Translations under genes and position numbers: made by a program
The notes under the pieces: model-generated
The model's database searches: none
The model's input: only the letters and a program-made list of their open reading frames with translations
What the model was told of the DNA's origin: nothing
Assembly (NCBI RefSeq): GCF_016903815.1
Contig: NZ_CP069973.1
From: Escherichia coli
GTDB taxonomy: Bacteria > Pseudomonadota > Gammaproteobacteria > Enterobacterales > Enterobacteriaceae
Length of the DNA: 64,000 nucleotides
Strand: one strand, 5' to 3'
Shown here: positions 56,156-56,700 of the stretch, piece after piece
Layout: every line of letters starts with the position of its first letter
Position numbering within the stretch: the stretch's first letter is position 1

Positions 56156-56657
56156 AACGCGTCCCCTTCTTAGTGGTTGAACTAACGGACACCTTTCGGG
56201 ATGGAAAAAACTTACTGACCTGGACTTGCCCTCTCGTTTGTTAGCTTAACTATAAGCCACTCTTTGCAGGTTTTCATCGCATTATTACGAAAAATTACAA
56301 TTAGGAAGGAATCGGGACAGGACTCATTTTTTCATACTAGCACTAACCCGCAGCAGGTAAAAGCAGTCTGCTCGAACTATTCATAACATTTCAGGATTAT
56401 CGCCAGATGAAATTGGTGACACTAATACCAGGATTGCTCTGAATATGACGTAATAACCGAGGAATGAATAAAGAATTACCGCAAATAATTAAGAATAGCC
56501 TCTAAATGATTATGGATTATTAAATCTATTAGCGCTACTTAATATAAATTAACTAACAATCAGTATTTTTTATGAATTTTATGCGAGGTTAATACTGGTT
56601 TTCGTATGAGATCCTGAGTTGGTGGTTCAATGACTCCTTAATGTTCGTCGGTTATGC

Positions 56658-56683
56658 ATAAAAAAGGCCGCTTGCGCGGCCTT
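56658..56683 (-). terminator. rho-independent terminator of acrAB
   Basis: Minus-strand hairpin ggccgcgcaagcggcc followed by a T6 run (plus strand aaaaaaggccgcttgcgcggcc). Confidence 0.7.
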
Positions 56684-56700
56684 AGTGATTACACGTTGTA

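Follow-up and report, generated by a model that had tools for sequence, protein, structure and literature searches.

The 545-bp spacer between acrB and tomB of Escherichia coli is very probably composite regulatory DNA that encodes no product, belongs to the core genome and is read on the minus strand. Its parts are the terminator of acrB, AT-rich upstream DNA to which nucleoid and regulatory proteins bind, and a sigma-70 promoter that carries a CpxR box and is followed by an 87-nt leader (Table 1). This spacer is already known, largely documented and ordinary, and, as a well-behaved piece of regulatory DNA in the core genome, it is of small importance. What the present analysis adds is a base-level map that brings together a scattered literature on the start site, CpxR, PdhR, H-NS and Rho, and that marks 150 bp as being under strong constraint. 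An earlier note on this DNA had found the spacer consistent with an extended promoter and 5' leader of tomB-hha under silencing by H-NS, and large enough to conceal a small RNA or a small protein. That reading is partly supported: the promoter region and the binding of H-NS (in vitro) hold, while neither silencing nor a long leader nor a concealed gene finds support.

According to the mechanism that we propose, acrAB transcription would stop at the conserved intrinsic terminator, past which a C-rich, Escherichia-specific stretch may let Rho halt any read-through. The distal AT-rich block, together with operator-like sites that include a PdhR-like box, would form an upstream region to which H-NS (in vitro, from the literature) and probably other factors bind, possibly with an effect on expression. 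The tomB-hha operon is transcribed from one mapped sigma-70 promoter, ATGAAA-17-TATAGT, and its leader offers a strong Shine-Dalgarno sequence plus some conserved sequence. CpxR, once phosphorylated, is expected to occupy the box adjoining the -35 element and to raise tomB-hha transcription during envelope or copper stress, an expectation that derives from the published listing of CpxR targets and from experiments in Yersinia.

Table 1. Features of the acrB-tomB spacer, from the acrB end to the tomB end, in window coordinates
Feature	Position	Strand	Description
acrB intrinsic terminator	56683-56660	(-)	From terminator scan; stem AAGGCCGC / GCGGCCTT, loop GCAA, T-run
C-rich, Escherichia-specific filler past terminator	56654-56585	(-)	C/G ratio 1.9; ~70 bp
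AT-rich block	56584-56430	(-)	26.5% GC; partly conserved, 45-65%
Decayed palindrome remnant TCAGAGCAATCCTG	56442-56429	(-)	Aligns with palindrome that fits RcsAB-box 14-mer in other genera
PdhR-box-like palindrome ATTGGTGACACTAAT	56426-56412		One mismatch to ATTGGTnnnACCAAT
Conserved island	56392-56373	(-)	E. coli GAAATGTTATGAATAGTTCG; consensus of other genera GCTAACTTAATGAATCCTAAGG
Extended -10-like element TGCTAGTAT	56342-56334	(-)	Candidate weak upstream promoter
CpxR-type direct repeat GTAAT-TTTTC-GTAAT	56298-56284	(-)	-56 to -42 from start site, adjoining -35
Sigma-70 promoter of tomB-hha	56277-56249	(-)	-35 ATGAAA 56277-56272, 17-bp spacer, -10 TATAGT 56254-56249
tomB-hha start site	56242	(-)	Kim 2012 supplement
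tomB 5' UTR	56242-56156	(-)	87 nt; alignment of 42 leaders
Invariant CCAUCCC in tomB leader	56204-56198	(-)	42/42 leaders
Small leader hairpin UUAGU/ACUAA	56185-56170	(-)	Alignment of 42 leaders; just 5' of Shine-Dalgarno
Shine-Dalgarno GGGG of tomB	56166-56163	(-)	

Extent, composition and conservation of the spacer

The window, by which we mean the whole 64,000-nt stretch of E. coli DNA that was analysed (assembly GCF_016903815.1, contig NZ_CP069973.1), carries acrB, tomB, hha and maa on its minus strand in this part, and the spacer occupies exactly positions 56156-56700, between the acrB ORF at 56701-59850 (-) and tomB at 55781-56155 (-). Of 5,426 complete E. coli genomes, 5,423 name the two neighbours acrB and tomB, and no feature is annotated in the gap across this set of more than 5,400 genomes, MG1655 included. 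The GC content of the spacer is 38.0%, compared with 50.3% for the whole window. When the stretches of the window that are free of ORFs of at least 110 codons are ranked by length, the spacer comes fourth, and it resembles the cyoA-ampG regulatory spacer of the same window (455 bp, GC 36.5%). Its size and composition are real, yet typical for long enterobacterial regulatory spacers. The description of about 540 bp of AT-rich DNA with no convincing ORF, from which the earlier note set out, was accurate, the longest ORF having 40 codons, and the A/T tracts and short palindromes that it pointed out are present, though modest and unremarkable: there are five homopolymer runs of at least 5 nt, four A/T-only runs of at least 10 nt and five inverted repeats, most of them imperfect.

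Between K-12 and the window, the spacer differs by nine substitutions and no indels, so that a U00096.3 coordinate is obtained by adding 424,553 to the window coordinate; the spacer is thereby K-12 480709-481253, and window 56242 is 480795(-). A repeated or mobile element is ruled out, the spacer being single-copy in E. coli genomes. The intact spacer is absent from roughly 34 of the 5,423 genomes. In a few, such as those of strains SEV4 and TUM13773, copies of IS1 lie at differing positions within it, and TUM13773, where the IS1 is no more than ~70 bp away from the ATG of tomB, has lost most of its spacer. A DARS1 transposon insertion in the acrB-tomB spacer has been selected in an evolution experiment (PMC5010248).

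Conservation of the spacer across Enterobacteriaceae, which the earlier note had put forward as a check, was followed through 80 loci that were collected by TomB alignment, with one genome per species. acrB lies upstream of tomB in 76 of them, and in all 76 species the spacer is 435-559 bp long with a GC content of 35-40%. Length and AT-richness are thus kept; the sequence mostly is not, strong conservation being limited to the terminator and the ~150 bp proximal to tomB. A profile along the E. coli sequence, built from 29 aligned species, gives this contrast its detail. The terminator hairpin is ~90% conserved and is the best conserved distal element, the C-rich filler that follows is not alignable outside Escherichia, and the AT-rich block shows the intermediate values of Table 1, with AT-rich motifs at 56579-56538 among its conserved islands. 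The segment 56430-56305 is weakly conserved except for one short island, and from 56303 to the tomB ATG conservation is high. The conserved islands of the spacer are short and look like operators.

The tomB-hha promoter and its candidate regulatory sites

That the spacer contains the tomB-hha promoter region, as had been proposed, agrees with published data down to the hexamers and the start site. The arrangement ATGAAA-17-TATAGT scores 9/12 in the promoter scan, conservation of the two hexamers extends to every species examined, and an identical pair is given for the constitutive RpoD promoter of the operon (Shimada 2014, PMC3946193). A single tomB start site, NC_000913.2 480019(-), which corresponds to window 56242, was mapped from 53 reads, which makes the UTR 87 nt long, and the upstream sequence given for it ends ...TATAGTTAAGCTA (Kim 2012, PMC3415461); it falls 7 nt past the -10 hexamer, as befits a sigma-70 promoter. 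In the same source, the ybaJ start site of K. pneumoniae (151 reads) belongs to the same promoter and has a UTR of 97 nt, and the table holds no further start sites between tomB and acrA (PMC3415461). With 5' UTRs of these lengths in the two species, the notion of an extended leader has to be given up. In vivo, a ChIP-seq peak of RNA polymerase and sigma-S extends over window 56143-56338 (PMC4447067). For Salmonella, prediction gave three promoters in the 1 kb upstream of tomB, of which only the fragment around the one at position 922 was active, and TomB shifted this active fragment; from position 922 of the 1,000 upstream bp, we infer that the active Salmonella promoter lies ~80 bp from the ATG.

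Immediately upstream of the -35 element lies the best conserved element of the spacer, TTGTAATTTTTCGTAATA, which contains the direct repeat GTAAT-N5-GTAAT and is invariant in the 29 aligned species. The repeat has matches in 76 of 77 spacers, and in 75 of these 76 its start and that of the -10 hexamer are 44 bp apart. It was first read as a CpxR box by comparison with the CpxR consensus, GTAAA-N5-GTAAA. Both pentamers are GTAAT rather than GTAAA, which amounts to two mismatches, and matches with two mismatches are not rarer in the window than chance (68 found versus 53 expected). Since a bare match is as common as chance would have it, the argument for CpxR is one of conservation and position, that is, of a direct repeat near the promoter with an almost fixed spacing to the -10 hexamer. 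Yamamoto and Ishihama reportedly counted ybaJ, in 2006, among the copper-inducible CpxR promoters. In RegulonDB, the targets of CpxR include tomB and hha, and the CpxR iModulon contains tomB, while ChIP-exo did not place tomB among the direct CpxR targets (PMC7657598). In Y. pseudotuberculosis, phosphorylated CpxR shifts the ymoBA promoter and activation of the Cpx pathway raises reporter activity, an effect that left YmoA protein levels unchanged (PMC13353760). The CpxR box adjoining the -35 element is the main known regulator site of the spacer, and it had been overlooked by the earlier note.

Downstream of the start site, the leader combines the Shine-Dalgarno sequence with two conserved elements. 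The small hairpin shows a UA-to-GC compensatory change at one pair in 11 sequences. The invariant CCAUCCC is complementary to the Shine-Dalgarno GGGG plus AUGG, and RNAalifold predicts that pairing. An anti-Shine-Dalgarno switch operated by CCAUCCC is nevertheless unsupported: covariation is zero, the predicted pairing is no stronger than that of shuffled sequences, and the predicted accessibility of the Shine-Dalgarno sequence and AUG equals theirs, the median unpaired probability of the Shine-Dalgarno being 0.25 in 74 leaders versus 0.28 in dinucleotide shuffles. The fold of the E. coli leader has a z of -0.9. CCAUCCC may be the binding site of a post-transcriptional regulator. Further downstream, the Term-seq data of Adams 2021 hold two strong 3' ends, one at K-12 480636 (window ~56083 (-)), 72 nt into tomB, and one at K-12 480307 (window ~55754 (-)), at the tomB-hha junction where hha starts; both are hints of premature termination or processing within the operon.

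Upstream of the CpxR box lie several short elements. The extended -10-like element at 56342-56334 has the counterparts TGCTATAAT or GATATAAT in Citrobacter, Klebsiella and Raoultella and none in Enterobacter, and by position it resembles TSS1 of Yersinia, which precedes the CpxR motif by ~26 nt; the start sites tabulated for E. coli and Klebsiella include none there (PMC3415461). The conserved island at 56392-56373 lies ~45-65 bp upstream of it. Further out, the palindrome ATTGGTGACACTAAT has the form of a PdhR operator, and by our estimate ~0.002 matches of this quality would be predicted by chance in 545 bp. The sole better PdhR match in the window is a perfect box, ATTGGTATAACCAAT, at 33602-33616 in the cyoA-ampG spacer, which serves as a positive control, the cyo operon downstream of it being a PdhR target (PMC3265435). 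PdhR has been described as controlling tomB-hha directly (PMC3265435). The box in the acrB-tomB spacer is not conserved outside E. coli, and the published PdhR SELEX peak for tomB (Anzai 2020) falls inside acrB, at window ~56993, away from the box. Anzai 2020 assigned to this tomB peak the weak PdhR-like sequence AACGGAATCGACCAGCT (8/14), at window 57157-57173, ~460 bp inside acrB; the spacer box is a much better PdhR match than this sequence.

Three base pairs from the PdhR-type box of E. coli lies the remnant TCAGAGCAATCCTG, at whose position other genera mostly carry TAAGAATATTCCTG or TAGGAATATTCCTA. The best site lies within two mismatches of TAAGAATATTCCTA in 53 of 77 spacers, versus 6 of 1,540 shuffles, and this near-consensus palindrome sits 309-335 bp (~320 bp) upstream of tomB (53/77 spacers; loci L006-L081). 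The genera that have it include Salmonella, Citrobacter, Enterobacter, Raoultella, Kluyvera, Kosakonia and Phytobacter. The Escherichia copies are all at background, with four to five mismatches, the aligned TCAGAGCAATCCTG having five. The consensus used for the RcsAB-box 14-mer is TaAGaatatTCctA, a string that appears verbatim in a publication on RcsAB boxes; it has no match at up to three mismatches in the window. None of the papers retrieved on RcsB with tomB and hha dealt, by title or abstract, with Rcs regulation of tomB-hha. If both sites work, upstream control of Hha and TomB might have been rewired in Escherichia, an Rcs input that responds to envelope stress having been swapped for a pyruvate-sensing PdhR input atop an invariant CpxR box; we regard this idea as speculative and rather unlikely. 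Hha modulates the H-NS-dependent silencing of virulence genes and of horizontally acquired genes. For this reason, the RcsAB-like palindrome of Salmonella, Enterobacter and the relatives of Klebsiella, together with the upstream islands, provides cheap leads on how Hha and TomB levels are set.

Alternative readings of the distal spacer

First, the length of the spacer might have been kept because it insulates. The presence of the acrAB terminator within the spacer, which had been proposed, is clear: a hairpin with an 8-bp stem of which six pairs are G-C, a 4-nt loop and a T-run begins 18 nt past the acrB stop, it was recovered also as inverted repeat I5, and among the 29 species the changes in loop and stem preserve the pairing. 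As a GC-rich hairpin with a U-run just after the stop codon, it has the sequence features of an intrinsic terminator. No 3' end of acrB appears in the curated Term-seq table of Adams 2021, for which low expression could account. Past the terminator, the C-rich filler is possibly a zone of Rho loading or termination; just after it falls the best coordinate, K-12 481133(-) or window ~56580, of a Rho termination region that Adams 2021 called and labelled 'orphan' (p = 5.6e-6). The insulator that these features suggest would be an intrinsic terminator with a Rho back-up in untranslated, C-rich RNA, which together would shield the toxin-antitoxin-like tomB-hha pair from read-through of the strong, stress-induced acrAB operon. 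The conserved terminator, the C/G ratio of the segment behind it, the Rho region whose best coordinate falls within the spacer, and a spacer length that is conserved while most of the sequence is not all speak in its favor. However, the Rho score is weak (2.07), and it compares 800-nt windows (99/281 without versus 100/589 with bicyclomycin), a measure that is confounded by tomB expression, such that the call at 56580 is indistinguishable from a bicyclomycin-driven induction of tomB. Moreover, the C-rich segment is found in Escherichia only and therefore cannot account for the conservation of length elsewhere. A mainly insulating role is thus possible, if on the whole doubtful also as the reason for the length of the spacer, and it does not exclude the composite regulatory region that we favor, with which it is compatible.

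Second, the whole spacer might be an extended promoter kept silent by H-NS, possibly together with Hha, which would coat the AT-rich DNA of a long tomB-hha leader region until relieved. The AT-rich block is a probable substrate for H-NS and for non-productive binding of RNA polymerase. Genomic SELEX, an in vitro method, marks an H-NS site in the acrB-tomB spacer (Shimada 2014, PMC3946193), and SELEX with the sigma-S holoenzyme, likewise in vitro, has a peak in the distal spacer (PMC5493296), to which no in vivo peak corresponds in ChIP-seq data (PMC4447067). Other observations that agree with silencing are the GC-poor core of the spacer, the retention of length and AT-richness in 76 species, the doubling of downstream read coverage by bicyclomycin, and the standing of Hha as a partner of H-NS, which makes autoregulation plausible. 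The leader, however, measures only 87 nt, and the promoter, far from being inactive in the wild type under standard growth, yields 53 reads in E. coli and 151 in Klebsiella, is listed as constitutive and has RNA polymerase on it in vivo. The high-affinity H-NS motif TCGATAAATT has a single weak match in the spacer, with two mismatches and overlapping the CpxR box, and is not enriched. A distal sigma-70 promoter within the AT-rich block was also considered and rejected, as nothing there passes the promoter scan or manual reading. Of the H-NS-silenced promoter, what stands is the AT-rich DNA, to which SELEX adds an H-NS site reported in vitro, and what falls is the inactivity of the promoter under standard growth; a spacer given over to silencing is unlikely.

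Third, a gene might have escaped annotation in the spacer, be it for a small protein or for a small RNA, such as a product of transcription past the acrB terminator. This suggestion has something to build on: about 350 bp of sequence is otherwise unassigned, and the Rho-dependent 'orphan' region is called at ~56580. Enumeration of ORFs of at least 8 codons on both strands of the spacer gave 12, of 8-40 codons, the longest starting with TTG on the plus strand. Two of them have a Shine-Dalgarno-like sequence, namely a 13-codon ORF at TTG 56630 (-) and an 11-codon ORF at ATG 56407 (+), but both sit in sequence that cannot be aligned even within Escherichia. A further ATG, at 56384 (-) within the island 56392-56373, is conserved, but in E. 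coli it opens a 13-codon ORF without a Shine-Dalgarno sequence, and across genera the ORF can be as short as 11 or longer than 25 codons and encodes unrelated peptides. As no ORF joins a Shine-Dalgarno sequence to a conserved frame, a small protein gene is rejected on the evidence of ORFs and alignments.

The case for a small RNA fares no better. An Rfam scan of 55300-57300 at E values up to 10 gave sub-threshold matches only, all on the terminator hairpin, the best of which reached 22.8 versus 66.8 bits and is merely the terminator. Scans for terminators and promoters found the acrB terminator and the tomB promoter, and neither a second terminator nor any other promoter-like site in the spacer. 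Transcription start data, which the earlier note had suggested consulting, are represented here by one dataset (Kim 2012), in which the only start site of the spacer is that of tomB at 56242, and the Term-seq list of Adams 2021 contains no RNA 3' ends within the spacer. With no Rfam family, promoter, terminator, start site or 3' end of its own in the spacer, a small RNA gene is rejected as well. A hidden gene of either kind, which finds no backing in Rfam, the terminator and promoter scans, the ORFs or the 76 Enterobacteriaceae, nor in the annotation of MG1655, is highly improbable.

Comparison with known systems

The composite regulatory region has close parallels among spacers and promoters that have been described. 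It is like the E. coli spacers in which genomic SELEX found sites for both the RpoD holoenzyme and H-NS (140 of 492 such spacers; Shimada 2014, PMC3946193), sharing with them AT-richness and both kinds of SELEX site. Unlike what silencing would entail, the tomB promoter is demonstrably active, and the role of H-NS, whose binding is known from in vitro SELEX, would therefore be one of modulation. The palindrome that aligns with 56442-56429 lies within two mismatches of the RcsAB box TaAGaatatTCctA in most other genera, whereas the Escherichia copy has decayed.

The proximal part invites comparison with the CpxR-activated sigma-70 promoters of E. coli, such as those of cpxP, yccA, yebE and ftnB, which likewise have tandem pentamers separated by a 5-nt gap just upstream of the -35 element. 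Their boxes read GTAAA-N5-GTAAA, whereas that of tomB has GTAAT twice, and tomB is absent from the direct targets found by ChIP-exo. The nearest counterpart is the orthologous ymoB-ymoA operon of Yersinia. There, two start sites have been reported (PMC13353760), compared with only the proximal one listed in E. coli and Klebsiella (PMC3415461), and the second, upstream start site of Yersinia matches, by position, the extended -10-like element at 56342-56334. The CpxR motif of Yersinia lies 162 bp and its TSS2 106 bp upstream of ymoB, which makes an offset of 56 bp (PMC13353760). In E. coli, the distance from the start of the box (56298) to the start site (56242) is the same, so that in both operons the CpxR motif has an offset of 56 bp from the proximal start site.
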